From Oculina patagonica (taxonomy: Eukaryota), in NCBI RefSeq assembly GCF_052425735.1, contig NC_135767.1:5952001-6016000 (forward strand): a stretch of DNA of 64,000 nt, read 5' to 3'. Both the position numbers and the translations under genes were made by a program. The first letter of the stretch is position 1; the number at the start of each line of letters is the position of its first letter. The notes under the pieces are model-generated. The model ran no database searches. It was not told the origin of the DNA and saw only the letters and a program-made list of their open reading frames with translations. Positions 8,852-36,406 of this stretch are shown in pieces.

Positions 8852-8945
8852 ATGACTGATCCCTTGGGAAAACAGTTAATTTTGTTTCCCTCAAAAATTG
8901 AGTTTCTCGGGAAACAAAATTAACTGTTTCCCTCGGGAACAGTCA
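8852..8945. repeat. Short palindromic (hairpin) interspersed repeat
   Basis: tgactg..gggaaaacagttaattttgtttccc pairs with gggaaacaaaattaactgtttccc..cagtca. Confidence 0.7.
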
Positions 8946-8971
8946 TCAAGTATATATTGTTTCCAAATAAC

Positions 8972-9341
8972 ATTTGAGAAGAAAATTTAGTGATAAGAAA
9001 ATGGAGCAATGTTTCGATGACTCCATGTCGTCATTATCAAGTGAAATTAGAATACAGAGTTGAAGCTTATATAGTGATCAGAGAATGGAGTGAAAATATT
9101 TAGGGTGTGATAATCTATTAGCATAGTCAATTTTTACATAATCAGTTTCATCATCATGTCTCTTCGCACCAGTAGGCGCATAAGGCCGTGCATAAACAGT
9201 TTAGCACGGACGGAATCTGATTGTGTGTTAAGTTTCGTGTTCCTGATAAAAAACTCTGTATTCTAATTTAACTTGATAATGATGACAAGGAGTCATCGAA
9301 ACATCATTCCATTTTCTTATCGCTAATTTTTCTTCCCAAAT
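8972..9341. mobile_element. MITE-like element with ~90-bp imperfect terminal inverted repeats
   Basis: 8972-9061 (..tgtttcgatgactcc..cattatcaagtgaaattagaatacagagtt) is the reverse complement of 9252-9341. Confidence 0.65.
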
Positions 9342-9626
9342 ATATTGTTTCCTGCACAATATTCACATAATCCATTACTTTGTCCTCAGGGTTTTGTATT
9401 AAACAATTATTCACCAAAGTGGAGGTGAATAGTGGTAGATATTTACCTTGCCGCGATGCGGCGAGGTAAATATCCACCACATTCACCGACACTGAGGAGA
9501 ATAATAACTGTTCACTTTATTGTTAGTATATACCGCACAAGTTTATTAACTAGCAGACCAAATAACATCACTTTTGGTAAACAAAGCGACACGCAAAGGC
9601 AGTTTGTTTGTCTTTAGCTGCTTGGA

Positions 9627-10048
9627 GGAGGGGGACACCGCAAAAATAATACTCAAACACCCCATCACCGCAAGAAAATTCGGCGAAACACCGTCACCGC
9701 AATATAATTAAGTTACTTATGAATGAAAACGGCTTGCTATTTGCAGCTAAAGCATATTAATGATCAACTAGACGATATTTCACTGTATTTTGTTACAAAT
9801 AAACATGGTATATGCCGTATATGCTAGTATTATAAAGTCAATCCAACTATAAAAAACGGATTAACGAAGATAGCAGAGCTAAAGCTAGTTCTGCACGTGT
9901 CAGACAAGAAACTGTAACACCGCCAATAATTTCGTTTCACCGAACACCGTAGGTTTAAAAACACAAACATCGCACACCGCAGGGTTTGAGATCACCGCAA
10001 CACGGGATTTTATTCACCGCAACACCGCAAACACCCATGTCCCCCTCC
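9627..10048. mobile_element. MITE with perfect 11-bp TIR GGAGGGGGACA and 4-bp TSD TGGA, nested in another palindromic repeat
   Basis: tgga|GGAGGGGGACA...TGTCCCCCTCC|tgga; many subterminal CACCGCA motifs. Confidence 0.75.
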
Positions 10049-10242
10049 TGGAGGCAAATAGTACTTTGCTAATCACCTCCGAGTAAACCAATCAGCACAT
10101 GCGAAAAGCACTATTCAGTTGTGTGGTATATACTAATAAAATATAATATTTTGAGGTCAAACAATAATCTCATCAATTCACAGCTCTACTTTTTTTTGTA
10201 ATTCATGGTCTCCCAGGAGGACTGAGTATATATATACAGTGA

Positions 10243-12005
10243 TCATGGCGTCGCTCTTAAAACGACTTCCTTGCACTTACATGTAGCTAAAACATCTCTT
10301 GATATCCGTAAAGTAGAAATGTGGTAAAATTCCCCTTCATGCACATTATGAAGATTAAAATGTGTACAGTAATGCAATTCATGTTCATCAATGTCATACA
10401 CCTGCAGTGCCAAATTCTGTCCCCTTGGTTCATTTTGGAAAGCGCCAAAAACATATATTTTCCCTTGAAAACTAACTGCACTTGCACAGTTTCTTGGTGC
10501 AACAACACTTGGAATGCTACTCCACATGTTGGTGTCTGGATCATACATTTCACAGGGATCCCCAGCTGTTGAAGCCACAGGAAGGCCTCCAAACACAAAC
10601 ACTTTTTGTTTAATGGCTGCACCACCAGCAGATGCTCTCTTTGCAAGAGTCGAAGGAAGTTTCTCCCAAGTATTTTTTCTTGGATCAAATCTTTCAACAA
10701 TGTCCATAAATTCATCAGTTCCACCGAGACCTCCAACAGCATACAAACAGCTTCCAGTAGCTACTGCACACACATTTGATCTGGGACTACTAAGTGGAGA
10801 GACTTCCGCCACTGATTTGTATCGGGATTGTATTTCTGTACTGTGCTAATCTGGTTATATTTGTCCTTTCCACCAATAACATATAAGAAACCTTGCAGAG
10901 TGACAGCAGCTGTAAAGTACTTCACAACTTCAGGAGGCTTAGTGTAAGTCCACTGGTTATGTGATGGATCGTAGCACTCTGCGACCCTACCATTTGAATC
11001 CATACTTTGTCCAAAAAGGAACAATTTATTGTGAAAAGAACTCATGGTACATACAAGCGGACAATATGTGGATGGCATTCTAGCCAGAAAATACCACTTG
11101 TTTTCAGAAGGAAGATAGCACAATGTTTTCTTTCTTCCACAAGCAACTATAGCATTCTCATGGGTCTTCAGACAATCTCTTGGAGGCTGAGAAAAAAAGC
11201 ACTCGTCTGTACCATTAGATATGGCACTCATGGCATCTAATATTAACTTTGTACATGCTGCACTGGTATTGACCAGCGGATGCTGCAACATGACATTGAA
11301 CACATAGTTGCGTGACACATAAATACAACGAACATGACGTAACAACTGCAACAAATTAAGGTCTTTCCTATTCCTATCCATCCACTTTACAATCACTTGG
11401 AAAACTTCTTCTTCCTCTTCCACAATGATTTCATCACTTGAAATCCATTCCTCGATTTCTTTGCTGCTCAGATTCAGAAAGTCCTCAGTTCCAGACACAG
11501 CAACAAAGTTGGCAAAAATCACATCGCACGCTGCGTTCCACAGATCTTCACACCGATATTTAAGGGCAAAATAAGCAGCCATTATACAGTTGGAAACGTC
11601 CAGCGTTAGTGAAAGGAATTTGCTCGACAAAGCTTTTAAACTTGGAATCAGCAAAAAATCTGCTTGTACAAACAACTCGTATGCATTCTCTTTAGTAATC
11701 TCAACATGTCCTGTGTACAGATAATCCAAGACTTGTTCTATTACAGTTTTGCTCGACTCTTCCAATTGGATCACTCCTTCTTTCTTCTCTTTCATGTCAC
11801 TGTTAAAAGCCCTGTAAAAAAATGGACTCGCTGCACATAACACAATTCTGTGAGCTTTTAAACGAGCTTGATCGTCACCAGAGCCAACTTCTAGAATTGC
11901 ATCACAGAAATGTTCGTTCCTTCGCTGAATATCGAGGCGTTTCATCATTTCAGTACAAAATAAAAGTCCCTCACTGTTTGCGATTGGTTCAAGAAGAGAC
12001 TCCAT
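10243..12005 (-). pseudogene. BTB-BACK-Kelch paralog with a 1-bp deletion frameshift at ~10807
   Basis: ORFs 10761-12005 and 10243-10812 join into one KLHL protein. Paralogs read CAG TGG CAG GAA GTC TCT; here CAG TGG CG GAA GTC TCT. Confidence 0.85.
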
Positions 12006-12231
12006 CGACAGGCTGGCAAAAGCTAATACACAAGGGATAAAATTTGAAGTGAATCAAGCCCGCGAAATCAGTAGGTACGCTATGTATGGGATCACTAAGT
12101 ATATACATTGTTTAATTCTAGGTCAACGTTCATGAGAGATACATGAAGTAGCTACTGTGCCTCGTGGCGTCCTTTGCTTTGCGTCTTTGTCTTCTTTGTG
12201 AAAGGAACAGCTTTATTTCATCAAACTTACC

Positions 12232-14035
12232 ATGGATTCTCTACTCCAACCAATATTAGACACTGAAGAACATCCATTTTGTGCTGAAATGATGAAACGC
12301 CTCGATATTCAGCGAAAGAACGAACATTTCTGTGATGTAATTCTAGAGGTTGGTTCTGGTGACGATCAAGCTCGTCTAAAAGCTCACAGAAATGTGTTAT
12401 GTGCAGCAGGACCGTTCTTTTTCAACGCTCTGAACAGTGACATGAAAGAGAAGGAAGAAGGTGTAATCCGATTAAAAGAAACGAGCAAAGATGTAATGGA
12501 GAAAGTCTTGGATTATCTGTACACAGGACATGTTGAGATTACTGAAGAGATTGCATATGAGTTGTTTACACAAGCAGACTTCTTTCTGATGCCGAACCTG
12601 AAAGCTTTGACAAGTAAATTCATTGTGAAAACGCTAGATATTTCCAACTGTATCATGGCTTATCATTTTGCTGGCAAGTACCAGGCAGAAGAACTGCTGA
12701 AAGGAGCGAGGGAATTCATTCTTGCCAACTTTGTTGCTGTGGCTGGAACTGAAGACTTCCTGAATCTGAGTGCTGAAGAAATCGAGGAATTCATTTCAAG
12801 TGATAAAATAATTGTGAAAGCGGAGGAAGATGTTTTCCAAGTGATCGTAAAGTGGATGAAAAACAATAGCGGAGATCAAGACTTCTTGGGGTTGTTGCAT
12901 CATGTTCGCTGTAACTACCTGTCACCCAGCTATGTGTCTGATATCATCTTGCAGCATCCATTGGTGAAAGCCAGTACAGCATGTGAAAAGTTTATATTAG
13001 ATGCCATGAAAGAGCCATCTGAGGGTACAGGCGATTGCTGTTCTCCTGCCAATAAGAGATTGTCTGAAAACCCATGATGTTGTAGTTGCTTGTGGAGAAA
13101 AGGAAACATTGTGTTATCTTCCTTCTGAAGGCAAGTGGTACAAGCTGGCTGACAAGCTATCTACTCATCACTCTTATTATTATGGGTTAAGCCCTTTCAA
13201 CAGTAAGTTGTTCATCATTGGAGCATGCAAAGAGCGAGATGGTCACATCGCAGAGTGCTATGACCCTTCACAAAACCAGTGGAATCCCATAAGTGCTCCA
13301 GAAATCATGGACCGTCGTACAGCTGCAGTGGCACTCCAAGGTTTTCTGTACGTTGTTGGAGGGAGAGACAGGCATGAAAATGTCCTTAACACTGTGCAGA
13401 AATATAATCCTGATACAGGTCGTTGGCAAGAGGTGTCTCCCCTGAGTAGTCCCAGGTCAAATGTGTGTGCCGTGACCGATGGAGGCTATTTGTATGCTAT
13501 TGGGGGCATGAGTGCAGATTATCAATATCTGGACATTGTTGAAAGGTTTGATCCTGGGAACAATACTTGGAGTGAACTTCCTTCAATGATAACAAAGAGA
13601 GCATTTGCTAGTGGTACAACCATCAGAGGAAAAGTTTTTGTGATTGGAGGCCTTCAAATAGCTTCATTAACTGGGGATGCTTGTGAAATGTATGATCCAG
13701 ACACCAACATGTGGAGTAGCATTCCAAGTGCTGTTGCACCAAGAACCTATGCAAGTTCAGTGAGCTTTAAAGGACAAATATATGTGAATGGTGTTGTCCA
13801 AAATGAGCAAGGAAGGGAAGTAATGTCACTGCAGGTGTTTGACGTTGAGAAAAATGAATGGAAAAGCTGTCCAGAAAATGTACTTCTTTATGGCTGGCAT
13901 GAAGTTACTACTCTAACAATACCAAACAATATCTTGGTTAAATGCAGGGAAATTTCAGAAGAGGAGATCCAGTGGCGAGAGGTCTCCAGAAGGCTAGCAG
14001 GGGGTGGTCCCCTTTTACGGTCTTTGAGACTTTAA
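12232..14035 (+). pseudogene. BTB-BACK-Kelch paralog with a frameshift at ~13035-13055
   Basis: ORF 12232-13077 (BTB-BACK) and 13109-14035 (Kelch) are in different frames. The conserved RDCLKTHD..VACG motif is in the downstream frame from ~13056. Confidence 0.85.
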
Positions 14036-14872: not shown

Positions 14873-15950
14873 AAAAAGAACATCTTTTCTAACATCGGGT
14901 ATGAAAACTTTTAAACATATTTTTGCCTGTAGTAACACCTCTGTTGTGAGTGATTTTTGACAATTAAAAAACCTCAAGCATGTAATACAAGAAAAACTGA
15001 AAAACTAACACCTAGATGTTGGCAGAAGGTTGTCATTAATGGTTATTTTCCTACACTATTTCTGTCCTCACATGACAGTTTATCAAGCATTAACTTTGTT
15101 TGTTGCATAATTTAATATAAACCATTTTAAGCCTCTTTAGACCTTATGTATGGTATTGTTCAAAATATTCTCACCGTATTGAAAGCCATTTAATTAATTG
15201 CTGTAAAATAGATAGAGTGCTTCGAATTTCCAGAAAATTTTATAATGTGAATTTGCTCATTTTTATCTTTTTAATTTATTACAAGAGTGATGTTTTAGAC
15301 TTAACTTGTTTTATAGGTACCGGTTCATGTACTACCACATTATCTTCAGTCATTATAATAATAATTTTTTTTATTGTTCTGAGGGTCCACAATAGGGTTT
15401 CCAGATCCCGCCATCCTGGCTAAAATTTTCCCTCAATCCTGTAATCCCAAAGGCTTTTATTGGCTTATCCGTATCCCGACCATTTAATCCCTTGCCTCAA
15501 TGATAACAGGCCTTTCAGTGAGTGTATATTCCCTTCTAGCACTGGTCTTGAAGCCTTTAGTCACCGCCAATAGGCTGTAAGCTAATTTCTTTCTTTCCGT
15601 GTAAATGAATGTTATAGAATGTAATTTTAGAATGATAGATAGTAGATGTGGGTGCACTCAGTGTTATGACCATTGCAAAGCAGCTAAACTTTGTCAAAGA
15701 CAACAGCATGTCATGCGATTGTTTCGCACCACGGGTTAGGGTACTACTTGAGTTGAAGATTCACAAGGAAAATAAGGTCCACGGGATCTACCGGTTGTTT
15801 TGAACTAGTTTATTGGTACAAATTCCAACTTGCACATGCTAGCTAGTTAACTGAAAGTAAAGGTATACATGTGGGTCGACTATAACATCTTTAAAATCAG
15901 ATAAAATACAAATTGAATCGACAAAAAAAGCTGTCTCTAACATATGGTCG

Positions 15951-16360
15951 ACACACATGTACAATAGGAGTTATGGCGCAAACCGTGACAACTCGCTCGG
16001 CTCGCCCAGGCTCGCCTCGCTCCTTGTCACAATTTGCGTCCATAACTCCTATTGTACATGTGTGTGCGGATCGCAAGCCGCTTTTTTATCCCTCTTGCGC
16101 CACAAGTAACAAAAAAAAGGCCTTTGACTGCTTTAACTTCCCGAAGCAGTTTCACTTGACCCCACTGTGTACCAGTCGTTGTTTGGTTGCATTATTACCT
16201 TATAAATACAAACTTTTAATTGACAAAAAGACTTGAGTGCGGATCGCAAGCCGCTTTTTTATCCCTCTTGCGCCACGAGTTACAAAAAAGGCTTTCGGCG
16301 GCACCTCTAACGGCCCGCAGCAACATAGTGCGCTAGATTTATTTTCCAATTGAACAAATA
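15951..16360 (+). repeat. Left terminal inverted repeat: terminal hairpin 15951-16065 plus an internal direct duplication (~16064-16125 and ~16238-16295)
   Basis: Imperfect reverse complement of 31856-32192; gtgcggatcgcaagccgcttttttatccctcttgcgccac occurs twice. Confidence 0.9.
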
Positions 16361-16383: not shown

Positions 16384-19300
16384 ATGGCTGCCGCAAGATA
16401 TTCGTCAGAAGTTTTGCAAGCTATGATGGAGGAAAACATCCGTGAATTTCAAAGAAACCCCCAAAGAAATTTAACTTTTTTACTGGCCCAAACAGATTTC
16501 AACGAATGGCTCCGTGTATGGAAAATGTCAATTCCCGAAAATGACCAAAACAACAAAGATCTGTACAAATTTGCAAGAAAAAACAAAAAAAAGTTTTCCG
16601 ATTTGTTAGAAAGCGAAATTGAAGACTTAAAAAGCATAAAAGCCAGCTTTGGGCTTGAAGTAAAGTTTTCAAAAGAAACAAACGGTGTTACTCAGCACAT
16701 GAGCCACTATTTCAGAGAAAGAGAACCCCACGTTTTCACAGAATACAAAAAAGATGAAATAAAACCAAATTTTGACAATTTTATTGAAAAAGCAAAGGGA
16801 GAAATCGAGGCTTGGTCGGAAAGAGGCTCAGGCTGGGTTATTGAAAGAATAACTGAGGCGTACATCAACGTTGCGCGTTATCAGCCATTGCGAGGTGGAA
16901 CTTACTTGCCATTGCCCCCAAAATTGGCAAAAAAGAAAGCCATTATAAACGTCCGAAACAAGGACAACCAGTGTCTAAAATGGGCACTAAGGGCGGCGCT
17001 ATTTCCTCCCAAAGATGGGAAAGACGCCCAAAGGCCAAGCAAGTACCCAGCCGATGACGGGATAGACTACAGCGGAATCGATTTTCCAACACCCCTAAAA
17101 CAGCTTGACAGGCTTGAGGCGAAAAACCCAAAACTCGCAATGAACGTCTTTGGATGGGTGGATGGCCGTGTGATTCCACTCAGAATTAGCGAAAAAGAAA
17201 AAAGCATTTCCCGTATTTGTCTTATGTTAATTGAGTCGGGCGAAACCCAGCACTACTGTTTTGTAAAAAGAGTAAGCGCACTGCTTTACGATCAGAGCAA
17301 ATCACACAACAAAAAACACTTTTGCATGTTGTGCTTGACCGGTTTTTCAAGAGCAGATTTGCTCGAGAACCACGAAAAATATTGCAATGGAGTTAATGGC
17401 AGGCCGACAAGGATCGAGATGCCGGAAGAGGGGAACAACACCCTTTATTTTAAAAACTACCACAAGCAAATGAAAGTGCCTTTTGTGATTTACGCAGACT
17501 GTGAGGCATTGTTAAGAAAGATGCAAGGATGTAAACGCGAAACGTCAGAAGACCGCCAGAAGATAAAAGATAAAGGAGAAGAACTGGAAGACTTGAAGCA
17601 AAAAAGCCACACGGAAAAGACAGAACAGCACGAGGCGTGTAGTTTTTCTTATACTGTTGTGAGGAGTGACGGAAAAATAAAAAAGCCCTTTGTTTACAGA
17701 GGAGAAAAACCCATGGAAGTGTTTTTGAACTGCCTTTTAAGCGAAGAGCGACAAATAAGGCATGAATTGTCAAATCAAAGCCCAATTGTTATGACTTGGA
17801 AAGACTGGGAAAAATTCAAAAAAGCAACCGTTTGCCACATTTGCGAAGACCCGTTGATGAAACAAAACTTTTTAGACTCGTTGCCGGTTTGGATTGGGAA
17901 TGAAAAGAAAAAAACTCTTGATTACTTTGGGCAGATGCACAAAAAATGTTATTACAAAAAGGAAAAAGAGGCGAGAAACCTTAAGGAGGACCATAGCTGT
18001 GAGCTGAAAAAGTTGACAAAAAAAGAACAAAAAGAGGCCGCAAAAAACCAAGAAAATTGCCTGGCTTGCAGGGTGGCCCATCACTATGAGCTGAAAAAGT
18101 TGACAAAAAAAGAACACAAAGAGGCCGCAAAAAACCAAGAAAATTGCCTGGCTTGCCGCAAGCCGCTTATCCAGCCAAGCTACAAAGATGTGGTAAAGGA
18201 CCATTGCCACATAACAGGGAAGTACCGAGGAGCAGCGCACAACTTGTGCAATCTGTTGATGCGAATAAACCCAAAGACGATCCAAATACCAGTTGTATTT
18301 CACAACCTGAGGGGCTATGACGCGCACCATTTAATGCAGGCGATGTCAAAGATTTCAAAAGAGGCCCAGAAAGAGGTAAAATGTGTTGCAAACAACATGG
18401 AAAAATACATCACATTTTCACTGGGCGGCTTAAGGTTTATTGACAGCTTAAACTTTCTACAAGGAAGCCTTGATTCACTTGTAAAAGGCATGCCAAAAGA
18501 GGCATTAGAAATAACAAAATCTATTTCTAAAGAAAATTACAAACTTCTTTTCAAAAAGGGAATCTACCCTTACGAGTACATAGACTCTTGGGAAAGATTT
18601 AGAGAAACAAGTTTGCCAGAAAAAGAGAAGTTTTACAGCAAGCTGAACGACGAGCACATAACAGACGAAGAGTATGCACACGCTCAAAAAGTGTGGAAAA
18701 CCTTTGGTTGCCGAAATCTTGGAGACTACCACGATTTGTATGTTAAAACAGACGTAACTCTGTTAGCTGACGTTTTTGAGAGCTTTCGAAAATTATGTCT
18801 TGAGAAGTATGGCCTCGACCCAGCCCACTATTACACGTCGCCAGGCCTTTCTTGGGACGCGCTCTTGAAAAAGACACGCGTGGAGCTTGAGCTACTCACG
18901 GACTATGAAATGCATAGCTTTGTGGAAAGGGGAATAAGAGGCGGAATTTCAATGGTCAGCAAGAGATACGCAAAGGCGAACAATCCATATGTCGAGGGCT
19001 TTGACCCGAGCCAGCCCAAAAAATACATAACGTACCTTGATGCGAATAACCTTTACGGCTGGGCAATGAGCAAACCACTGCCGAAAAGCGGTTTTAGATG
19101 GAAAAAGGTAATGCCAACAGAAAAAGAAATAATGACAAAAAAGGAGCAAGCAAAAGCTGGATGGATTTTGGAGGTAGACCTTGAATACCCCGCCAAACTG
19201 CACAGAGCCCACAACAGCTATCCATTAGCACCAGAGAAAAAGAAAATAAACGAAGAAAAGTTTTCACCTTACCAGAAAAAAATAATAAAAGATCTTGATT

Positions 19301-20376
19301 TGAAACTGCCAGACAGCAAAAAGCTCGTATTGACTCTCGAAAACAAAACCAATTACGTTGTGCATTACAGAAACCTGCAGTTTTATCTGAAACAAGGAAT
19401 GAAGCTCAAAAAGGTGCACAGGGTTTTGGAGTTTGAACAAGAGGCGTGGATGGAGCCGTATATCCGAATGAACACAGAATTCAGGAAAAAAGCAAAAAGT
19501 GTCTTTGAAAAGAACTTTTACAAGCTCATGAATAACTCTGTTTTCGGGAAAACAATGGAAAACTTGAGAAACCGAGTAGACATAAAAATAGTTCGGAGCG
19601 ACGAAAAATACAAAATAAGAAAACTGGTTGCCAGCCCATTGTATTCAAGGCATGTAATGTTTTCAAACGATTTGGTTGGAATAGACATGCACAAAAGCAG
19701 GCTTTTTCTCAACAAGCCGGTCTACACAGGAATGACTATCCTCGATGTAAGTAAGATATGCATGTATGACTTTTATTACAACCACCTGAAAAAGGAGTAT
19801 GGGTCGAAATGCGAGTTGCTTTACACGGACACCGACAGTCTTTTGCTTGAGATAGAAACAGAAGACTTTTACGCGGACATGGCAAAAAACATTGACGAGT
19901 ATGACACAAGCGGATATCCGAAAAAAAATCCACTTTTTTCATCTAAAAACAAGAAAGTTTTAGGCAAAATGAAAGACGAGTGCGCGATAGAAGAAGAGTG
20001 CAAGATTACAAAAGAACTTTTTCCAGTGCTTCACACTATTTCAGAATGTGTATGTTTGAGGCCGAAAATGTACTCAATAATGACAGAAAAAGTGCAGAGT
20101 GACCGTGAAACGGTGCCTGTGAAACCCGAAAAAAATATCAAAAAAGCGAAGGGTGTGAAAAAATGTGTGATAAAAAATAAGATAAATCACAAAAACTTCA
20201 AAGATACACTTTTTCAAAACAAAGAGAGCTTTCACGAAATGCACATGCTAAGAAGCGAGGGCCACGAGATGTATTCTATAGTGGTCAACAAAAAATCGCT
20301 GTCGCCATTTGACTCAAAGCGATGGATAGCGGATGATGGGATACATACAAATGCTTACGGATATAAGCCGACATAA
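16384..20376 (+). CDS. polB: Protein-primed family B DNA polymerase (pPolB), 1330 aa, with N-terminal TP/vOTU-like region, zinc fingers and an EndoVII-like motif
   Basis: Exonuclease motifs YADCE, FHNLRGYD, YVKTDV; polymerase motifs YLDANNLYGWAM, KLMNNSVFGK, YTDTDS; Polinton-type GSGW..YQPLRGG, NKDNQCLKW, HYCFV, CMLC..H..YC, DHCHITGKYRGAAH..CN. Confidence 0.97.
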   Translation: MAAARYSSEVLQAMMEENIREFQRNPQRNLTFLLAQTDFNEWLRVWKMSIPENDQNNKDLYKFARKNKKKFSDLLESEIEDLKSIKASFGLEVKFSKETNGVTQHMSHYFREREPHVFTEYKKDEIKPNFDNFIEKAKGEIEAWSERGSGWVIERITEAYINVARYQPLRGGTYLPLPPKLAKKKAIINVRNKDNQCLKWALRAALFPPKDGKDAQRPSKYPADDGIDYSGIDFPTPLKQLDRLEAKNPKLAMNVFGWVDGRVIPLRISEKEKSISRICLMLIESGETQHYCFVKRVSALLYDQSKSHNKKHFCMLCLTGFSRADLLENHEKYCNGVNGRPTRIEMPEEGNNTLYFKNYHKQMKVPFVIYADCEALLRKMQGCKRETSEDRQKIKDKGEELEDLKQKSHTEKTEQHEACSFSYTVVRSDGKIKKPFVYRGEKPMEVFLNCLLSEERQIRHELSNQSPIVMTWKDWEKFKKATVCHICEDPLMKQNFLDSLPVWIGNEKKKTLDYFGQMHKKCYYKKEKEARNLKEDHSCELKKLTKKEQKEAAKNQENCLACRVAHHYELKKLTKKEHKEAAKNQENCLACRKPLIQPSYKDVVKDHCHITGKYRGAAHNLCNLLMRINPKTIQIPVVFHNLRGYDAHHLMQAMSKISKEAQKEVKCVANNMEKYITFSLGGLRFIDSLNFLQGSLDSLVKGMPKEALEITKSISKENYKLLFKKGIYPYEYIDSWERFRETSLPEKEKFYSKLNDEHITDEEYAHAQKVWKTFGCRNLGDYHDLYVKTDVTLLADVFESFRKLCLEKYGLDPAHYYTSPGLSWDALLKKTRVELELLTDYEMHSFVERGIRGGISMVSKRYAKANNPYVEGFDPSQPKKYITYLDANNLYGWAMSKPLPKSGFRWKKVMPTEKEIMTKKEQAKAGWILEVDLEYPAKLHRAHNSYPLAPEKKKINEEKFSPYQKKIIKDLDLKLPDSKKLVLTLENKTNYVVHYRNLQFYLKQGMKLKKVHRVLEFEQEAWMEPYIRMNTEFRKKAKSVFEKNFYKLMNNSVFGKTMENLRNRVDIKIVRSDEKYKIRKLVASPLYSRHVMFSNDLVGIDMHKSRLFLNKPVYTGMTILDVSKICMYDFYYNHLKKEYGSKCELLYTDTDSLLLEIETEDFYADMAKNIDEYDTSGYPKKNPLFSSKNKKVLGKMKDECAIEEECKITKELFPVLHTISECVCLRPKMYSIMTEKVQSDRETVPVKPEKNIKKAKGVKKCVIKNKINHKNFKDTLFQNKESFHEMHMLRSEGHEMYSIVVNKKSLSPFDSKRWIADDGIHTNAYGYKPT

Positions 20377-20418: not shown

Positions 20419-21409
20419 CTAAGTGCTTGGTGGTAACTGTGTATTTGGAGGAATAATAAGCAATTCTTCACGCACAAAGCCGCGCTTGGGGCCATCGTGC
20501 AAGTAATAAAGCACTGGCTGATCAGGTTTAGTAACAGACCTTTCGATGCTGTAGACTTTTAATGACCAAATCGGATCTGTTGCCCTTTTTACGCCGCCTT
20601 CTAGCTCGCCAGGTTGGAAGAGATAGCGCACATTAACGAGAGAGGGGAGTTTTTTTTCTTTCAAGCCAACAGGTCTTGTATATTTTGAGGACGGCTTGGA
20701 CGAAACAGCCTTTTCTTTGATTGCAGCAGCAGGTTTCTTGCCAGTAAGACTGGTTACTTCGTTGTTCAGAGCGGTAACAACTTCGGGAAGCCTTTTTTAC
20801 CCACGCTGTCGACCGCTGGCCAGATGGCAGGTTCATCTCGACACCGTACTGATAACCAAACAGGCGCCCTGCCAGTGTTTGATTAAAACGTTCAACAATA
20901 GCTTGATCTCTGTGGATATTAACACGCCCGCGTCTAATATAGGTTTTGTGATTTTCCATTTCTTTAGTAACAGCTCCCATGAATTCGCGACCAGGGTCAA
21001 CTTGAAGCATCTGTGGCCATTTTAGTGCACTTCGCCTGTAAATTGTCTGAAAACCTTTTGCAACCTCAGTTGAATCTTTGGAGGTCAAAGGCTCGGCCTC
21101 TTTGTAACGGCTGGCAACGTCAACAACAGTCAGCGCGTATTTGTAAACTTTTCGCCCTCGCGGCAGTTTGTCGTGTGGCAGAAAAAGAAGGTCCGCCTGG
21201 TGGACCGCGTTAGGAGAAGAAACATCGAATTTTGGGCGAGGAACGTATCGTGGTGCCGGAAGGTAGATCTGCCAAAGGGCCTGCTTAACGAGCCACTTTT
21301 TAGCAGCATCTTCGGAAACCTTGGCCGCCTCGGCTAATTTTTTTATCGCTGCAATTCCCTTCCAGTAGCCCTGGGGGCTATAGTAGACTTTCGAGATCTT
21401 TGCATCCAT
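20419..21409 (-). CDS. Retroviral-like (rve, DDE) integrase, ~329 aa if repaired; interrupted by one extra base in a 6-nt homopolymer at 20793-20798
   Basis: HQADLL, YALTVVDVASRY, QVDPGREF, IVERFNQTL. Removing one A gives WVKRLPEVVTALNN... which runs into ORF 20419-20664. Confidence 0.9.
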
Positions 21410-23990: not shown

Positions 23991-24590
23991 TCAATAAAAA
24001 AATTCTGTGCCGTAAGGGTGGCGATGAGAAATAACAAGATGCGAAAACTTATTTTTTTTCAGCTTTGAAATGACTTCTTTGTAATCTTCATGGGAAAGTT
24101 CGCCAGCGTAATCCTCAAAGATTGCCTTCGTGGTCTTGGCAGAGGGGGTGTAAAAGAAAACAATTGACGCAACATTTTCGCGGAATGAGGCTGTTATGCT
24201 TGTCAATTTTTGAGTTAACACCCATACGCTCAAACCTGCGTGGCGAGCAGAGAAAGCAAGATTCACCAATTCACCTGTTCTTCCTTTTACATCTTTCGAT
24301 GCAGCACAGTCGTCGAGGATGATAAGCGTGTTCGCACCCTCAAAAAGAAATCTTGAAAACCTTAACCAAGATTCAACCTCGTGCTGCTCGCAAATGAAAA
24401 CAAAAAATCGAAGATCTTCCTCAGCAAAGCGATAATAAGTCTTGTTGTGCGCAAAAGTCGGGCAGATGAGCACGATGTAGTCAAACTTGCCTCGGAAAGG
24501 GCCACAAAGCTGATTGACTACGTACCTTGTTTTTCCTGAGTTCGTTGGTCCCACAATGAGAGCGTTGAAGGGTATGTTGGAAGGATCCAT
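23991..24590 (-). CDS. A32/FtsK-HerA family genome-packaging ATPase
   Basis: Walker A GPTNSGKT, Walker B LIILDD, arginine-finger motif SARH, and hhTQ motif (VWVLTQ). Confidence 0.93.
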   Translation of the reverse strand: MDPSNIPFNALIVGPTNSGKTRYVVNQLCGPFRGKFDYIVLICPTFAHNKTYYRFAEEDLRFFVFICEQHEVESWLRFSRFLFEGANTLIILDDCAASKDVKGRTGELVNLAFSARHAGLSVWVLTQKLTSITASFRENVASIVFFYTPSAKTTKAIFEDYAGELSHEDYKEVISKLKKNKFSHLVISHRHPYGTEFFY

Positions 24591-24603: not shown

Positions 24604-25857
24604 TTAATAAAGCACAGATTCTAACTGCCTGCCAATTATATTCATTTGGGCGTCGCTGATTACGTAAATGTGGCAGTTCAAATTACCTGAGCCGCTTGCT
24701 TTCCTCTCTAGCTCAAGCTGGACACCGTCCTTTGTGTTCACAAGGCGCTTGCCGCTTCCGTGCATCGAGTGGTCAGCCATGGAACGCAGATCAATCAGAA
24801 GGCCGAACTTGTCTTCTGTGTAAAACTTTTGCAGGGTCATGTGCTGCGTTTTATTTTTTTCTTTCATGTAGAATCTTTTAACTTCTTCCCATATGTCCAT
24901 TCCTTCGATGCCGTTGTTGTACAGCATGTTTGGCGAGCCGTTGACAGTGACGCTTACTTTTGTAAGGTCTGGGTTAATGTACTTTTCCGAGATCCTTGCA
25001 CCTTTGGCATATTGCTCTATAAAAAGTAGCAAGATACCTTTTAGGGACCTCCTCTGAGGGTTGACCTTAAGATTCAGACGTGTGTCGGATCCTTTTGCAA
25101 AAGTAACAACTTCGGCACGCTGGATGTGGTCGTAAGCGAACTCTTTGCCGCCCGAGTAAGCGCTGAACGCCTCATCTGCAATTTCCTTGCTTCTTATCAT
25201 TTCGTACTCTAGCTGTATGTTTGTCAGCTTGTATTTCAGTTTTGTTGCATCTGAGCCTCTTACAACATGTTCGGCTGCCGCGAGCTTCAGTTCGAACAGA
25301 AGATCGTTGTATAGTGCCTGTGGATAAAATGCTCCGTGGTCAGTTAAAATCTGGTGATCCAGACGGATGCGGTATTTATTACCATATAGCTCATTCAGCT
25401 TTTTTTCTGCGTCGACTCCTGAAGTTTTCTTATCGCCAGCATTTGAGCGAATTTTGTTGAGGTCCTCGCTCTGAATGCCCTCTGGCACCCTGTCGTCGCG
25501 CTCCTCCTGCGAAAGGAAAAAATCCTCAAATATTTTGTAGATGTCATAGCCAACCGTGTCCTGCACGACGGTGCCTTCGTACTTTACAACAAACTTGTCG
25601 ACCAGAGCTCGGCTGACGTTGTCAACCAGAAAGTTGTTGGCATGGCCTCCGCTCAAGTCGATGTTGAAGCGCAGCGCCAGCGAGCCAGGCACAATGACCT
25701 CGTTTTCGTTCAGCTTTGGCACTGAAACATACAACGTTTCCTCTGGATTGGCTTCAGTGCGGTCAAAAGTGATTCGTTTTACAGCTCGCTCGGCTTTCAG
25801 TGCGCCGAGGGTTTTCTCTACGCGTCCCGGTCGAAGGTTTTCTTGAACAGCAGCCAT
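24604..25857 (-). CDS. Probable double jelly-roll major capsid protein, 417 aa
   Basis: Size, beta-strand-like alternating pattern, position next to the packaging ATPase, and N-terminal (VIVPGSLALRFNI) and C-terminal (HIYVISDAQMNI) patterns resembling PLV MCPs. Fold not computed. Confidence 0.75.
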   Translation of the reverse strand: MAAVQENLRPGRVEKTLGALKAERAVKRITFDRTEANPEETLYVSVPKLNENEVIVPGSLALRFNIDLSGGHANNFLVDNVSRALVDKFVVKYEGTVVQDTVGYDIYKIFEDFFLSQEERDDRVPEGIQSEDLNKIRSNAGDKKTSGVDAEKKLNELYGNKYRIRLDHQILTDHGAFYPQALYNDLLFELKLAAAEHVVRGSDATKLKYKLTNIQLEYEMIRSKEIADEAFSAYSGGKEFAYDHIQRAEVVTFAKGSDTRLNLKVNPQRRSLKGILLLFIEQYAKGARISEKYINPDLTKVSVTVNGSPNMLYNNGIEGMDIWEEVKRFYMKEKNKTQHMTLQKFYTEDKFGLLIDLRSMADHSMHGSGKRLVNTKDGVQLELERKASGSGNLNCHIYVISDAQMNIIGRQLESVLY

Positions 25858-25919: not shown

Positions 25920-27350
25920 ATGGCAACAGGTGGTGGTGATTTTGGATACGAGGACCCTGATTTGGACCGAGATCTTGACCACAACAGTGATAACGATGAT
26001 GAAGAGGAACAAGAGGTCGACACAACCCGACCATTTCAGCCCGGGATGGTATCCACACCCTACCATGGGGGTGAACAACATGAAATGCAAACAATGCAGC
26101 ACGAACAGAGCGGGCTGCCAGAAACATCCTACGACGAAACACCTTTGCTTGAAAGAACCCCTTCAATAAGTGATCTTCAAAATGAAAGTAATTTGCGACA
26201 AAAACTAAAAAAAGCAGTAGACATGATAAAAGGCAAATTTCCCAAAGCAAACTTTGAAAAAATAAAAATCAGAAGAGGCAAAGGGAAAAATGAGGGTAAA
26301 ATTGTTGCTGTAGGAACAAAAAAAGGCGAGTACAAGATTTTAAAAGAAAATGAGTCAGGCTTCATGAAAAGCTTTTTAGACAGCTTCAAAGATGAACTTG
26401 GGCCGTCAGCTGAAGATATTATTGCTCAAAAAAATGAGAGCATAAGAGATGTACGCCAAACATTAAGAAAAGCTGAACGCCAAAGATTAAGAGAAACTGA
26501 AAAACAACTTCAAGAGGCCCAAAAACTCGCATCGGAAAAAGAAAAAGCCGCCCTAGAAGTGCAAGATCTGAGAAACAAAATCGAGCGAACTCAAGCTCAG
26601 ATTGAAGCACTTACTCAAGAACACGGTTCGAATCTTGAAAGTGATTCAGAACTACGGAGACTGCAGCAACTGAAAAAAAATTATCAAAAGGATCTTGACA
26701 ACGCGAAAAAAGAGGTGGTGGCCATTGAAAAACAATCGAAGCAGAAGACAAAAGAACAAACACGGGTCGACCAACTCAGGGCAAGCCTCGCTGCCACAGA
26801 GAGAGAAAGAAACACTTTGCAAGAAAGGCTCAACGACACAAGAGCGTTGGATGATCTAAAAGAGCAAGAAGCCGAGCTGAAGCGACAAAACGATGAAGAT
26901 CAAGCAGTAATACAGGATGAAAATACATCCCCCACTGACAAACAAGCTGCTGAAGAAAGAGTTGCTGAAAGAACCGAGGAGCTCGCACGTTTGCAAACAC
27001 AGATTGCAGAAAGAGAAAGAGCGCTTCCACTTCGTGAGAGGATCAAAGAAATCTTCAAAAAAAATGGCGTGACAGTAACAGCAATCTTTCTTGCTGCTGG
27101 TGTCACGATTGGTGCTGTAATTGGTGCCATTACAAACTCTTTGAAGGCTACCGGCAAAGCGTTGGGGAAAGGCTTAAGTGATGTTGGCTCAAAGGTGGCA
27201 TCAGCTCTGCCCGGTCTTATTGGCTCGATTGTAAGTTTTCTTTTCAAAACAGCTGGTCAAGTAATTGGCTTTCTTGCAGAGCACACCTGGTTGCTTATAC
27301 TTGCTGCGGTTGCTTTTCTTGTTGAAAGATACATCAAGAAGAGACGTTAA
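25920..27350 (+). CDS. Viral coiled-coil membrane protein, ~476 aa
   Basis: ATG at 25920; acidic N-terminus, ~200-aa coiled coil, 2-3 C-terminal hydrophobic/amphipathic helices, ends KKRR; shares TTAA stop overlap with the convergent 571-aa gene. Confidence 0.8.
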   Translation: MATGGGDFGYEDPDLDRDLDHNSDNDDEEEQEVDTTRPFQPGMVSTPYHGGEQHEMQTMQHEQSGLPETSYDETPLLERTPSISDLQNESNLRQKLKKAVDMIKGKFPKANFEKIKIRRGKGKNEGKIVAVGTKKGEYKILKENESGFMKSFLDSFKDELGPSAEDIIAQKNESIRDVRQTLRKAERQRLRETEKQLQEAQKLASEKEKAALEVQDLRNKIERTQAQIEALTQEHGSNLESDSELRRLQQLKKNYQKDLDNAKKEVVAIEKQSKQKTKEQTRVDQLRASLAATERERNTLQERLNDTRALDDLKEQEAELKRQNDEDQAVIQDENTSPTDKQAAEERVAERTEELARLQTQIAERERALPLRERIKEIFKKNGVTVTAIFLAAGVTIGAVIGAITNSLKATGKALGKGLSDVGSKVASALPGLIGSIVSFLFKTAGQVIGFLAEHTWLLILAAVAFLVERYIKKRR

Positions 27351-29102: not shown

Positions 29103-29768
29103 ATGGTTGTGCTCACAATCGACGCGAGTTCCAACGGGGAAGCTGTTTACTTTGACCAGCCAATTGAAAAACCAAGGTTTATCAGCCTGCTGTCATGCTC
29201 GTTACAAAACAGCTGGCGTAATCTGGAAGAAATTGGCTCCATAAGCATTAAACAAAACAATGTGAGCAACAATGTTGCTGTTTTTTTCCCAGGCAACTAC
29301 AATTTTGATGAAATTACAACTTACCTGACTAATAAGTTCAAAGATCAACAAAAGCTAACAGTAAAAAGGGATGATTTAAAAAGAGGCTTTTCAATAACAA
29401 AAACAAAAAGTATTGAAAGCTTTTCTTTTGATAAAAATCTTTCTAAACTTTTTAAGAACACAATTGTTGATGCTTCTAACGCAAGAATTGAAGATTTTAC
29501 TATACCAGACTTTTATTACATTCACTGCGATTTACTTTCCAAAGAAAATAACTTGTATAATGGAAAGCCAAGTGACATTCTCGCTTGTGTACCAATAACC
29601 GGGAAACCTTATGATTTGGTTCATTACCCTCAAAATTTTATCAATAATTCACGTCGAATCGACGCTGTTCAGAGTGTGAACAGTGTCACATTGACCGTCA
29701 AAGACAAAACTGGCAGTAAGTTTGACTTTGTTGGAGCTCCGCTGCATTTTGAATTAGAATTAAATTAA
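29103..29768 (+). CDS. Probable minor capsid protein (penton, single jelly-roll), 221 aa
   Basis: Polinton/PLV mCP-like pattern: PGNY near the N-terminus, YIHCDL..NLYNGKPSDILACVPI, SVTLTVKD..G..FDF.G....FELEL at the C-terminus. Confidence 0.75.
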   Translation: MVVLTIDASSNGEAVYFDQPIEKPRFISLLSCSLQNSWRNLEEIGSISIKQNNVSNNVAVFFPGNYNFDEITTYLTNKFKDQQKLTVKRDDLKRGFSITKTKSIESFSFDKNLSKLFKNTIVDASNARIEDFTIPDFYYIHCDLLSKENNLYNGKPSDILACVPITGKPYDLVHYPQNFINNSRRIDAVQSVNSVTLTVKDKTGSKFDFVGAPLHFELELN

Positions 29769-29792
29769 TATTTTTTTATTGTATACGAGACC

Positions 29793-30479
29793 ATGTCATC
29801 TGCTAATGTTCTTCCGAGTGCCCCTGCTTATGGTGTAAGCGAAGAAAACAGCGTAAAACAAACACTGTATCCTGCTTTGCCAAATCAACCAGAAAACTTT
29901 AGGTTAACAAAAATCAATCAAATTTGTTCGGATTTTGACAAAGAAGTTGCTAAATACCGAGCTGTTTTGAAAAAGTATAAAAAGGTGAAGTCTGTTTTCC
30001 ATTATTCCGCAATTTCAATGGGTGGTTTGTCCAGTGTTCTCTCTGCTTCCAGTCTTGGCACCGCGGTAACGGTCGTTGGTTTGCCGGTAAGCGTTCCTCT
30101 CGCTGCATGTGCTGCCATTACAGGCGTTTTGTCTGCCGCTTTCACTGGAGCAAGTAAAAAACTTGAACCAAAAATTTTGAAAAATAATGAAATTACTTCG
30201 CTTGCTGTTGCCAAACGTGAAACAGTCAATAGACTTGTTTCTGCCGCTCTCATTGACAATAAAGTTGATGACAAAGAGTTTAAAATTATTTTGGATGAAT
30301 ATTCTCGTTACATGGCCCTCAAAGAGACTGTTCGCAGGCACCTTACAAAAAATTTAAGCCAAAAAAAGCCATCCCCACAGCCTGACATTGAGAAACTGAG
30401 AGAGGAAATTCGACAACAAGAATTAGATAGGTTAAAAAAAAGAATATCAGCCGAGTCGAAATCAGATTTGAGAAAATAA
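29793..30479 (+). CDS. Two-TM hairpin membrane protein, 228 aa, resembling the 'GasderminX'-type ORF described in adintoviruses
   Basis: LYP.L...FRL.KI N-terminus, KKYKK, two adjacent G/S/A-rich hydrophobic helices, coiled C-terminus; family assignment from memory. Confidence 0.7.
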   Translation: MSSANVLPSAPAYGVSEENSVKQTLYPALPNQPENFRLTKINQICSDFDKEVAKYRAVLKKYKKVKSVFHYSAISMGGLSSVLSASSLGTAVTVVGLPVSVPLAACAAITGVLSAAFTGASKKLEPKILKNNEITSLAVAKRETVNRLVSAALIDNKVDDKEFKIILDEYSRYMALKETVRRHLTKNLSQKKPSPQPDIEKLREEIRQQELDRLKKRISAESKSDLRK

Positions 30480-31637: not shown

Positions 31638-31856
31638 TTAACACGTGTTGTTTGTCAAAAAGTTTGCAAGAAGCTTTTTGTCAAATGTTTTTAACAATTC
31701 GATGGTTTCTTCTCTTATTAAATAGTTTTCCTTTTTTGAGTTTTTCTTGTAATTAGGACGCATAAAGTCTTGTTCTTTTGTGCTGTTTGAGATTTTTTTT
31801 GGGCATGTTGATATGATTGATTTCCTTCCTTTTCCCATTTTATCTTTATTGGGCAT
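31638..31856 (-). CDS. Possible small basic protein, 72 aa, starting at the inner edge of the right TIR
   Basis: ATG lies directly after the TIR-borne TTTTTCAATTAAACAA motif, mirroring the position of polB at the left TIR. Confidence 0.35.
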   Translation of the reverse strand: MPNKDKMGKGRKSIISTCPKKISNSTKEQDFMRPNYKKNSKKENYLIREETIELLKTFDKKLLANFLTNNTC

Positions 31857-32192
31857 TTGTTTAATTGAAAAATAAATCTAGCGCACAGGTGGCGCACTAT
31901 GTTGCTTCGGTCCGTTAGTGATGCCACCAAAAGCCTTTTTTGTAACTCGTGTCACAATAGGGATAAAAAAGCGGCTTGCGATGCGCGCACACATGTACGA
32001 TAGGAGTTATGGACGCAAACCCGCAAACCGTGTGTCAAGGAGCGAGGCGAGCCGCACACACACATGTTCGTTAGGAGTTATGGGCGCAAAACCCGCAAAC
32101 TGTGTGACAAGGAGCGAGGCGAAACTGGGCGAGCCGAGTGAGTTGTCACGGTTTGCGGGTTTTGCGCCATAACTCCTAACGTACATGTGTGT
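31856..32192 (-). repeat. Right terminal inverted repeat: terminal hairpin 32058-32192 plus an extra copy of the inner arm (~31987-32054)
   Basis: Reverse complement of the left end; cacacatgt.cg.taggagttatgg.cgcaaa..ccgcaaac occurs twice in tandem. Confidence 0.9.
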
Positions 32193-33479
32193 GGTCGATA
32201 TACTTACAATTCTGTAAGGCGTAATCCCATTTAAAACACGCTATTTTCCTACTTTTCTGTCCAAGGTAAAACACACTGTTTCCGATAAGGGATTATTTTC
32301 CTCTATAGTCCTTTATTCTCCTACTCACTCCAATCCACGAGCAAGAGGTAAAATCTGATTGGCTGCTATGCCCAAAATGGCGGGAATATCGTGTGATCGC
32401 GTGATCAGATCTTTCGCTAATAAAAACAACCAAAATACCTAAACGAGTTATACGAATTATAGTTTGATCCTTAAAACGTTTGCTGGTTTCATTGTTTTAA
32501 GGAACAAAAGGGTTCCTTTGTTTATCGTTTGTCAAAGAAAATTCCTAAATATGCCGCCAGCAAAACCCTTGTCTTTTTCCATGTGTTATTTTTTCGAAAA
32601 CGAAGGAAAGACCAGCAAAATTAAATACAGGGCAGTGTTGAGCACACGTAAACAAACTTGCATGCGAAATTTAGAGTTGTTTTTGACAATGTTAAATTTG
32701 GCCAAAACTCGATGTGTTGTTATTGCCCTCGGGCCTTCAATTGAAACACCACCAGACAGTTGACCCCCACGCAAGAGCACTCCAGGTTGTCAGGAGGACT
32801 GTCTGGTGTCCGTCTATCAATTTTTAACTTCATATTCTAATTTTAATATCACCTTAAATCTCCAATATTTCTTATTTCTCTAAATTTTACTAATCCTTTG
32901 AGAAAAACTATCTCCTCCCCCAAAAACCCAAAAATTTACAAAATACCGCAAAACATAGATATATGGGATGAGTGAAGCGTTTTTGGATTCCTTGGAACGC
33001 GAACGAGATATTTCTGTTAAACCCATATAAAGCGTTGGGAAAACGGCCTTCAGGTAGAACCCCACCTTAAAAGTACATAAAATTGTAAGTTTTGGACTTT
33101 AGAGTTTCTACTAAAATGGCCAACTCGGCTGCGCCTCATTGACTACTCACTCATAGATAACCTCGGCTCGTGGTCTAACTGTAAATTGGAATTCAAGTAT
33201 TTATACTTGCTTACACTGGAATTAAACTGTGAAAAATATCAACTCCAGGTGGTCAGATCTCTGAACTGGCTGATTACATAATATTTTCCTATCTGTGATG
33301 CAGTTGAAAATAAATTCCTCTGTTATATTTTAAAATGGTACGACTTTATTGGCACCAGGTTTTAATGATACAAGAACCCCTATGCGGTAAATTGATGCAT
33401 GGTTTATAGGTTTTCTCTTATAGTTCTGTTATAGAAGTCGTTGTTTACTTACATCAGAAACCCACAACTCTTATGGGGA

Positions 33480-34660: not shown

Positions 34661-36406
34661 ATGGATTCTTTACTTATACCAATCTCAGATACTGAAGAAC
34701 ATCCATTTTGTACTGAAATGATGAAACGCCTCAATATTCAGCGAAGGAACGAACATTTCTGTGATGTGATTTTAGAAGTTGGTTCTGGTGACGATCAAGC
34801 TCGTTTGAAAGCTCACAGAAATGTGTTATGTGCAGCAAGTCCGTTCTTTTTTAACGCTTTGACCAGTGACATGAAAGAGAAGAAAGAAGGAGTGATCCGA
34901 TTGGAAGACACAAGCAAAGATGTAATGGAAAAAGTCTTGGATTATCTATACACAGGACATGTTGAGATTACTAAAGAGAATGCATTTGAGTTGTTTGCAC
35001 AAGCAGATTATTTTCTGATTTCAAGTCTTAAAGCTTTGTCGAGCAAATTCATTTTACAAACGCTAGATCTTTCCAACTGTATCGTGGCCTACTATTTTTC
35101 CATCAAGTACCAGTGGAAAGAACTCCAGGATGGAGCGAAGGAATTCATTCTTGCTAACTTTGTTGCTGTTGCTGGAACTGAAGACTTCCTGAATCTGAGC
35201 AGCAAAGAAATCGAGGAATGGATTTCAAGTGATACAATCATCGTGAAAGAGGAAGAAGAAGTTTTTCAAGTGATTGTAAAGTGGATGGAGAACAATCAAA
35301 ATAGCAAAGATGTAGATTTTTTGCAGTTGCTTCATCATGTTCGTTGTATTTACCTGTCACGCAACTATGTTTTTAACATCATACTGCAACATCCACTAGT
35401 GAAAGCTAGTACAGCATGCATAGGATTTGTTTTAGATGCCATGGAAGGGGCTACCCATGGTACAGATGAGTGCTTTTTTTCTCAAGCTCCAAGAAATTGC
35501 CTTAAGACACATGAAGATGCTATAGTTGCTTGTGGAAGAAAGAGAACATTGTGTTATCTTCCTTCTGAAAACAAGTGGTATGAGCTGGCCGAGAAGTTAT
35601 CCAATCGTAACCCTTATGATCAAGCTATAACTTCTCTTCACGGTAAATTGTTCATCATTGGAGGACCCTTGAGACTGAGTCAAAATGACACCATAGCAGA
35701 GTGCTTTGACCCATCCCATAACCAGTGGGCTCCTACAAAGCCTCCGGAAATAGTAAAGTGTGGTACAGGTGCTGCCGTACTCCAGGGTTTCTTGTATATT
35801 GTTGGTGGGTACAATGGGTTGGACAACAGGATTAGCACTGTACAGAAGTACAATCCTGATACAAATCAGTGGCAGGATGTCTCCCCCCTGAGTTGTCCCA
35901 GATCAAATATATGTGTAGTGGCTGATGGAAGTTATCTGTATGCCATTGGAGGTTCTGGTTCAAATGGTCCATTCTTGGACATTGTTGAAAGATTTGATCC
36001 CAGAAACAATACTTGGAGGACACTTCCCTCAACTCTAACAAAAAGAGCTTGTGCTTCTGGAACAGCTATAAGACAAAAGGTGTTTGTGTTTGGAGGCCAA
36101 TGGCTATCCACGAGTGGGGTTCCCTGTGAAGTGTATGATCCAGCCACCAATGTGTGGAGTAGCTTTCCAACTGTTATCAGACCAAGATGCTACGCAAGTG
36201 CTGTGAGTTTTAAAGGACAAATATATGTTGTTGGTAATTTTCGAGAAGATCAGAGGGAGGAAGATCAGATGTCAGGCCTGCAAGTGTATGACATTGATAA
36301 AAATGAATGGAAACTCTGTTCAGATGGTCTACCAGGTGGATTCTTTAAAATTTCTACTCTGCGAATATTAAGAGATGTTTTGGCCAAATGCAAGGTACTT
36401 TCATAG
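34661..36406 (+). CDS. Intronless BTB-BACK-Kelch protein (KLHL-like), intact
   Basis: Same domain motifs as 4075-5850; ATG at 34661 (MDSLLIPISD) by alignment with paralogs. Confidence 0.93.
   Translation: MDSLLIPISDTEEHPFCTEMMKRLNIQRRNEHFCDVILEVGSGDDQARLKAHRNVLCAASPFFFNALTSDMKEKKEGVIRLEDTSKDVMEKVLDYLYTGHVEITKENAFELFAQADYFLISSLKALSSKFILQTLDLSNCIVAYYFSIKYQWKELQDGAKEFILANFVAVAGTEDFLNLSSKEIEEWISSDTIIVKEEEEVFQVIVKWMENNQNSKDVDFLQLLHHVRCIYLSRNYVFNIILQHPLVKASTACIGFVLDAMEGATHGTDECFFSQAPRNCLKTHEDAIVACGRKRTLCYLPSENKWYELAEKLSNRNPYDQAITSLHGKLFIIGGPLRLSQNDTIAECFDPSHNQWAPTKPPEIVKCGTGAAVLQGFLYIVGGYNGLDNRISTVQKYNPDTNQWQDVSPLSCPRSNICVVADGSYLYAIGGSGSNGPFLDIVERFDPRNNTWRTLPSTLTKRACASGTAIRQKVFVFGGQWLSTSGVPCEVYDPATNVWSSFPTVIRPRCYASAVSFKGQIYVVGNFREDQREEDQMSGLQVYDIDKNEWKLCSDGLPGGFFKISTLRILRDVLAKCKVLS

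Follow-up and report, generated by a model that had tools for sequence, protein, structure and literature searches.

A conserved pair of late-domain-type motifs in a predicted membrane-hairpin protein of coral Mavericks suggests ESCRT recruitment

How Mavericks leave animal cells, and whether they form particles there, is a question on which one gene in the window (the whole 64,000-nucleotide stretch of DNA analysed here) offers a specific handle at the peptide level. The gene, named P0001, lies in a 16.3-kb element that is a Maverick/polintovirus, with inverted repeats, a family B DNA polymerase (PolB), an rve integrase, and an A32 ATPase. The features of the element are as follows.

15942..16359: left terminal inverted repeat region
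16384..20376, plus strand: family B DNA polymerase, 1330 aa, with an endonuclease VII domain (motifs identified from the sequence)
20633..21409, minus strand: retroviral-type integrase, frameshifted in this copy (rve E 6.6e-7, just below the cut-off)
23991..24590, minus strand: A32-type packaging ATPase (Pox_A32 E 1.8e-10)
24604..25857, minus strand: 417-aa ORF, whose size and position suggest the major capsid protein (putative; no family match)
29103..29768, plus strand: 221-aa ORF, penton-like, conserved upstream neighbour (by size and position; no family match)
29793..30479, plus strand: P0001, 228 aa, with a motif tail, a hairpin with a hydrophobic tip, and C-terminal helices; SLATT-like
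31855..32201: right terminal inverted repeat region

The P0001 gene directly follows the putative penton and is the final ORF of the structural block of the element. This neighbourhood recurs elsewhere: the penton-like neighbour gave a tblastn match in 69 of 80 metagenome loci with a P0001 homologue, and at least one element gene was located near the homologue in all 36 metagenome loci of at least 3 kb. Most other genes of the element are open, whereas the integrase frame is broken. No cysteine protease match was obtained among the ORFs scanned for families. Five small ORFs between 21469 and 23969 on the minus strand (141, 95, 130, 190, and 186 aa) have no family match; the product of 141 aa has a hydrophobic segment rich in Gly and Ala at its start. 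A 476-aa ORF (25920-27350, plus strand) has an acidic N-terminus, an extended coiled coil, and, towards the C-terminus, hydrophobic segments (Kyte-Doolittle 2.29); it weakly matches a tape-measure PHROG (E 2.7e-4). The surroundings of the element are animal genes: intronless BTB-BACK-Kelch genes in a tandem array enclose it (4075-14035 and 34661-36406), and class A GPCR genes, likewise intronless and in tandem, lie alongside (40321-62396); several of these genes are apparently broken. Contigs of four sequencing runs, guessed to be RNA, extend along the element and over the P0001 gene; having no silent control, they do not count as evidence.

The P0001 protein can be divided into a motif-bearing tail, a basic patch, and an uncharged hairpin, located as follows.

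29814..29825, plus strand: PSAP, aa 8-11, within LPSAPAY (aa 7-13); predicted TSG101-UEV ligand (from sequence and conservation)
29865..29879, plus strand: LYPAL, aa 25-29, within TLYPAL (aa 24-29); predicted ALIX-V ligand (from sequence and conservation)
29970..29990, plus strand: basic patch KKYKKVK, aa 60-66, directly before the hairpin
29991..30155, plus strand: uncharged helical hairpin rich in small residues, aa 67-121; predicted membrane hairpin, topology inferred

The two motifs that the original prediction had placed within the first 30 residues are thus both present, and the basic patch stands where it was described, with the uncharged stretch beginning at aa 67. Shuffles of the 35-residue tail produced both motifs at a frequency of 1.5e-5, and shuffles of the whole protein at 2e-5. 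The element has 12 ORFs besides P0001, and P[ST]AP, YPx[LI], YPxxxL, and [PL]PxY occur in none of them. The longest uncharged stretch of the protein spans 55 residues (aa 67-121), 56% of which are A, G, S, or T, and a second basic patch (KK, aa 122-123) follows it.

Two AlphaFold models, one from an alignment of 34 sequences (mean pLDDT 75, pTM 0.47) and one from 77 (mean pLDDT 79, pTM 0.53), show a long helical hairpin of residues 33-91 and 97-152 or 154, joined by a 5-residue turn and followed by two further helices. The tail (aa 1-32) has a pLDDT of 46-60 and no regular structure in either model, so that it is predicted to be unstructured, and it would lie in the cytosol. The hydrophobic tip of the hairpin is predicted to sit in a membrane, with the basic patches alongside, and both termini would be cytosolic. 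The protein had been described as having two transmembrane segments. The best 19-residue Kyte-Doolittle window is 2.08 (starting at aa 91), but the first helix is weakly hydrophobic, its windows reaching about 1.3-1.5. Among 34 homologues, 32 have one window of at least 1.6 and only 5 a second, while a second window of at least 1.0 is found in 32. Two transmembrane helices are therefore a moderately supported prediction.

We then asked how well the motif pair is retained among relatives of P0001. The closest named protein, from the stony coral Oculina patagonica, is 96% identical and may come from the same genome, so it does not count as independent. A first word-seeded search yielded 96 homologues, and both motifs were found in 82 of the 93 that could be anchored; YPxI replaces YPxL in 22 of these 93 and is common in one clade. 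This set is biased, because words from the N-terminus seeded most of it, and it was not used as the main evidence (words from the core recovered only 3 proteins). A search of the coral genome for further copies gave 150 scored matches out of 440 candidates, representing at least four subfamilies at about 100-92%, 80%, 52%, and 50% identity, and all 38 copies examined keep both motifs. These copies are not independent either, because their 5' DNA is shared: the intergenic region and the first 14 or so codons are 83-87% identical across subfamilies whose cores are only about 45-50% identical. Recombination has homogenised the PSAP cassette among the subfamilies of this genome. This shared 5' stretch, seen between window positions 29750-29850 and the copies L031-L034 and L038, is near-identical in DNA, and L038 consists of a window-type upstream region joined to the gene of another subfamily, which points to co-resident Mavericks swapping modules at this region. 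Six annotated coral proteins (P0010, P0046, P0082, P0084, P0085, and P0090) fuse a P0001-type N-terminal part to unrelated domains; they are probably gene-prediction artefacts at element insertions.

It could be argued from these features that the conservation is an artefact, produced by ascertainment together with recombination that has made the 5' ends of co-resident elements alike, given the N-terminal seeding of the first set and the 5' DNA shared among the genome subfamilies. Some copies within the genome keep the motifs in other codons. In L035 and L036 the PSAP motif is kept with all four codons different and with different neighbouring residues, and four subfamilies retain YPxL through differing codons. 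In view of the bias of the first set and the 5' homogenisation, a second set was seeded from the core only, with the pattern HYRxV[ALG]KKY (aa 54-62). It gave 482 matches, of which 411 were confirmed and the best 80 of the 411 kept; these were ranked by the full-length query, which leaves a slight bias towards motif-bearing copies. Nine of the 80 loci were dropped because their tails do not begin with Met: four are truncated or contain a stop, another four have no start codon but keep both motifs, and one has neither the start nor the first proline. One duplicate was removed as well, leaving 70 unique tails. These form about 5.5 effective clusters at 80% identity, all apparently from coral-type elements.

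P(S/T)AP is found in 60 of the 70 tails (PSAP in 49, PTAP in 11), YPxL in 61, the broader [LIM]YPx[LI] in 65, and both motifs together in 56, where shuffles of the tails give both at 3.9e-4. Neither motif occurs outside the tail in any of the same 70 proteins. Among 64 loci, the weighted modal frequency is 0.87-0.98 at the motif positions, against 0.25-0.79 in the flanks and a median of 0.64 in the core, so that the motifs are retained beyond both chance and the surrounding sequence, the comparison that the original prediction had proposed. Departures at the motif positions amount to 0-6%, near the 2.6% of the best core columns in the same loci. In alignment A4, P8 and P11 are invariant, but this result was set aside, as A4 omits 21 of 63 intact loci, including most of those that depart from the motif. 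With both motifs in 56 of 70 core-seeded tails, with diverse codons, and with spacers and flanks that diverge while the motif residues do not, the artefact explanation is largely refuted, and we regard it as very improbable. The well-conserved pair of late-type motifs is real, and the sequence pattern indicates that purifying selection maintains the two classical ESCRT ligands in the P0001 gene.

The manner in which the tails vary gives further information. Position 2 of the PSAP motif is S in 57 tails and T in 13, and nothing else in the 70; the x of YPxL is occupied by nine different residues. The two spacers of the motif tails range from 3 to 8 and from 2 to 8 residues in the same set, and are longer, up to about 20-30 residues, in P0042, P0075, and P0088. 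The serine is encoded by both TCN and AGY codons and the threonine by ACN, while the P, A, Y, and P positions use most or all of their synonymous codons. YPDL occurs in 16 of the 70 tails and P[ST]APP in 49. In a tree built from the core alone, with 80 rows (67 loci and 13 proteins), PTAP requires 5 changes, 3 of them forced by well-supported branches; recombination at the 5' end could inflate this number. Losses of the motifs lie dispersed over the tips: 12 rows need 11 changes, a value as low as that in 242 of 500 shuffles, as expected for decay after insertion.

P(T/S)AP is described as a ligand of the TSG101 UEV domain and YPXnL as a ligand of the ALIX V domain in the relevant passages of PMC8402826, where Y, P, and L are given as the critical residues of the YPDL of EIAV and the Gag of MLV is reported to have both PSAP and LYPAL. 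The S/T-only position, the free x, the varied codons, and the variable spacers together form the pattern expected of ligands of TSG101 and ALIX, as judged from sequence. On the host side, the V-domain exons of ALIX are present, with an intact GTK/FYND segment, which we take to supply the phenylalanine of the binding pocket; in the exon that was compared, identity to ALIX of other cnidarians is about 60-80%. Four UEV matches were found in the host genome, two of them adjacent (G000:C1:27413833-27420369, C2:31138564, and C13:12742927); they are possibly TSG101 paralogues or fragments.

A different partner for the tail has to be considered, for instance a viral protein such as the penton, or the helical bundle of P0001 itself; the resemblance to late domains would then be incidental. 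The conserved block extends beyond PSAP to N5, V6 (or L), and L7, which a late-motif model does not need; YPxL is separated from the conserved first helix by 2-8 residues, close enough that it could pack against that helix; and the YPxI variants common in one clade also suit this explanation. There is a precedent as well, since the conserved YPX3L of BK polyomavirus VP1 is structural and unrelated to ESCRT according to the part of PMC11281352 that deals with it. Such a partner would, however, have to account for an S/T-only toggle, a free x, and variable spacers that fit two ligand definitions simultaneously, and the tail is of low confidence in both AlphaFold models. We consider a non-ESCRT partner distinctly unlikely. 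Because of the conservation, the ligand-permitted substitutions, and the presence of host ALIX and UEV genes, recruitment of ESCRT by P0001 is likely, and binding of ESCRT by the tail in some way appears to us quite probable. To this extent, the reading of P0001 as an ESCRT-recruiting protein finds partial support.

The scaffold that carries the motifs was compared with known families and structures. A Foldseek search of BFVD returned five matches at E<=1e-3 for both models (5.5e-7 to 1.2e-4, 15-22% identity). Three of these best structural matches are uncharacterised proteins of invertebrate iridoviruses (A0A068QKD3, A0A5B8RH66, and S6DF61) and the other two are unnamed entries (A0A6G6ZQR1 and Q06VM1); from the models, all five are probable homologues of P0001. 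The iridovirus TFV is reported to use ESCRT for budding, via other proteins, in passages of PMC4880917. SLATT-annotated viral proteins account for 9 of the top 50 BFVD matches, with a best E of 0.008. These viral 2TM proteins may share with P0001 a helical hairpin, a hydrophobic tip, and C-terminal helices; the matches to their models have E values of 0.008-0.17 and TMq of 0.3-0.55, and long helical hairpins match widely. P0001 has no Pfam SLATT match at E<=0.1, and no member of the family reaches the curated cut-off. Below that threshold, Pfam matches among 77 members include SLATT_1 in 12 (best E 0.0044), the RTX N-terminal family in 13, and Orbi_NS3 in 2. Since the curated SLATT cut-off is not reached, P0001 is only labelled SLATT-like, a weakly supported likeness, and is not filed as a SLATT member. 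A SLATT gene is labelled in the Hydra and Stylophora adintovirus maps of Starrett et al. (Fig. S2 in PMC8502044).

Other searches gave no clear relative. In the PDB, the best Foldseek match had an E of 0.04 and the best sequence-profile match 0.17. The best VIA match, to BAR domains (Z 12.5), is within the range for helical bundles, and no BAR-like or ESCRT-III/PspA-like identity is claimed, the PDB matches being those of generic helical bundles. None of 145 and none of 37 pattern matches in IMG/VR was a relative, nor was any of a further 18 homologous by profile; neither the phage records nor PHROGs gave a match to P0001. In the Atlas, only unnamed clusters were matched, one mostly of Preplasmiviricota and one of Nucleocytoviricota, with few labelled members. 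We also considered GasderminX. Part of PMC8502044 presents it as an accessory gene that acts on membranes and belongs to the virion module of adintoviruses, and describes a likeness to the C-terminal domain of gasdermin and a pX-like tail. An identity of P0001 with GasderminX is unsupported; no gasdermin match was obtained in family, PDB structure, or profile searches.

The likeness to SLATT proteins raises another role for the ESCRT motifs. ESCRT might manage a SLATT-like viroporin or lytic pore formed by P0001, through sorting to multivesicular bodies, shedding, timing of lysis, or limitation of damage, or might itself be sequestered. All of the motif evidence fits this explanation equally well, and the structural neighbours of P0001 include viral SLATT proteins, a group described as predicted pore-formers (in a passage of PMC9226505). 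The SLATT genes of PLVs have been proposed to serve in endosomal escape (in the relevant part of PMC12220804) or in lytic egress and abortive infection (in the relevant part of 10.64898/2026.10.13.758929), and the 13 weak RTX N-terminal matches among the 77 family members lean the same way. These published proposals concern pores, entry, and lysis and do not describe late motifs, unlike what is seen in P0001. On the other hand, tandem late motifs on a membrane protein encoded in a capsid-gene block are the pattern of known egress proteins, and pore formation by P0001 is itself only putative. Motifs that bind ubiquitin ligases are the usual route for self-sorting, and PPxY occurs in none of the 70 tails. 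We therefore think management of a pore rather unlikely to be the role of the motifs.

The known egress proteins provide closer comparisons. As described in sections of PMC6949946, NS3 of bluetongue virus (BTV) is a non-structural membrane protein with late domains near its N-terminus, polybasic motifs ahead of TM1, two transmembrane helices in all, and possible viroporin activity; its PSAP binds TSG101, NS3 drives non-lytic egress of a non-enveloped virus, and particles stay tethered when this PSAP is deleted. NS3 carries PSAP and PPRY and a glycosylated loop between its transmembrane segments, and belongs to an RNA virus, whereas P0001 carries P(S/T)AP and YPxL and a 5-residue turn, and belongs to a DNA virus. 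Of the 77 members, 2 match the Orbi_NS3 profile, with a best E of 0.014, which is not credible as homology. By analogy, BTV NS3 is the closest functional analogue of P0001, not a homologue. Retroviral Gag proteins (MLV, HIV-1 p6, and EIAV p9) have both motif classes in the same order, and their LYPAL and YPDL forms recur in the P0001 family; the late motifs of Gag, however, are borne by a structural polyprotein, and those of P0001 by a separate, predicted hairpin membrane protein.

From these comparisons, we lean towards P0001 being a SLATT-like, membrane-anchored ESCRT adaptor for the exit of virions without lysis. The gene is a conserved part of the virion-gene block of coral Mavericks/polintoviruses, and a SLATT-type 2TM scaffold looks to have gained late domains. 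With the hairpin tip in the membrane and both termini in the cytosol, as predicted, the N-terminal tail would recruit TSG101 (ESCRT-I) through P(S/T)AP and ALIX through YPxL, after which ESCRT-III/VPS4 would cut the membrane. The C-terminal helices may touch or capture capsids, and the progeny would leave by budding, whether into vesicles or from the cell itself, in a membrane cloak, as in the case of orbivirus NS3. In adenovirus-like biology assembly is assumed to be nuclear, and if it is so here, ESCRT might act at the nuclear envelope. A role of P0001 in egress is plausible on the sequence pattern; that the release is non-lytic or quasi-enveloped, as the original prediction had proposed, we infer by analogy with orbivirus NS3 and retroviral Gag. 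The fuller proposal, that coral Mavericks exit as quasi-enveloped particles by means of two late domains grafted on a SLATT-type hairpin, is tentative and somewhat doubtful.

Our literature search found no paper on SLATT together with ESCRT. Among the matches listed in this non-exhaustive search of openly readable papers, none dealt with polintons, Mavericks, or polintoviruses and ESCRT or late domains, and none treated Maverick egress by its title or the start of its abstract. The searched text of Starrett et al. (PMC8502044) mentions neither ESCRT nor a late domain, and that of a coral polintovirus survey (PMC11131425) mentions no ESCRT, egress, or SLATT; the latter reports that coral polintoviruses express capsid genes and does not describe an exit route. 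In the searched text of 10.64898/2026.06.19.733378, SLATT appears in legends only.

If the proposed role in non-lytic exit is correct, P0001 would represent the first egress machinery for any Maverick and a protein-level sign that these 'transposons' are selected for an extracellular stage. It would also suggest what the related iridovirus proteins do, assign to viral SLATT-like genes a role besides pore formation, and extend the NS3-type strategy of exit to DNA viruses that lack an envelope and belong to the adenovirus-like lineage. The particles are predicted to be membrane-cloaked, and standard virome preparations might miss or destroy them.

A further element of P0001 lies behind the hairpin. 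A conserved loop with the pattern D-x-x-[IV]-x-D-x-E-F (aa 153-163) joins the hairpin to helix 3, and its E162 and F163 are invariant in the alignment. The loop resembles half an EF-hand or a TerB-type acidic loop; a single TerB match was found, at E 0.018.
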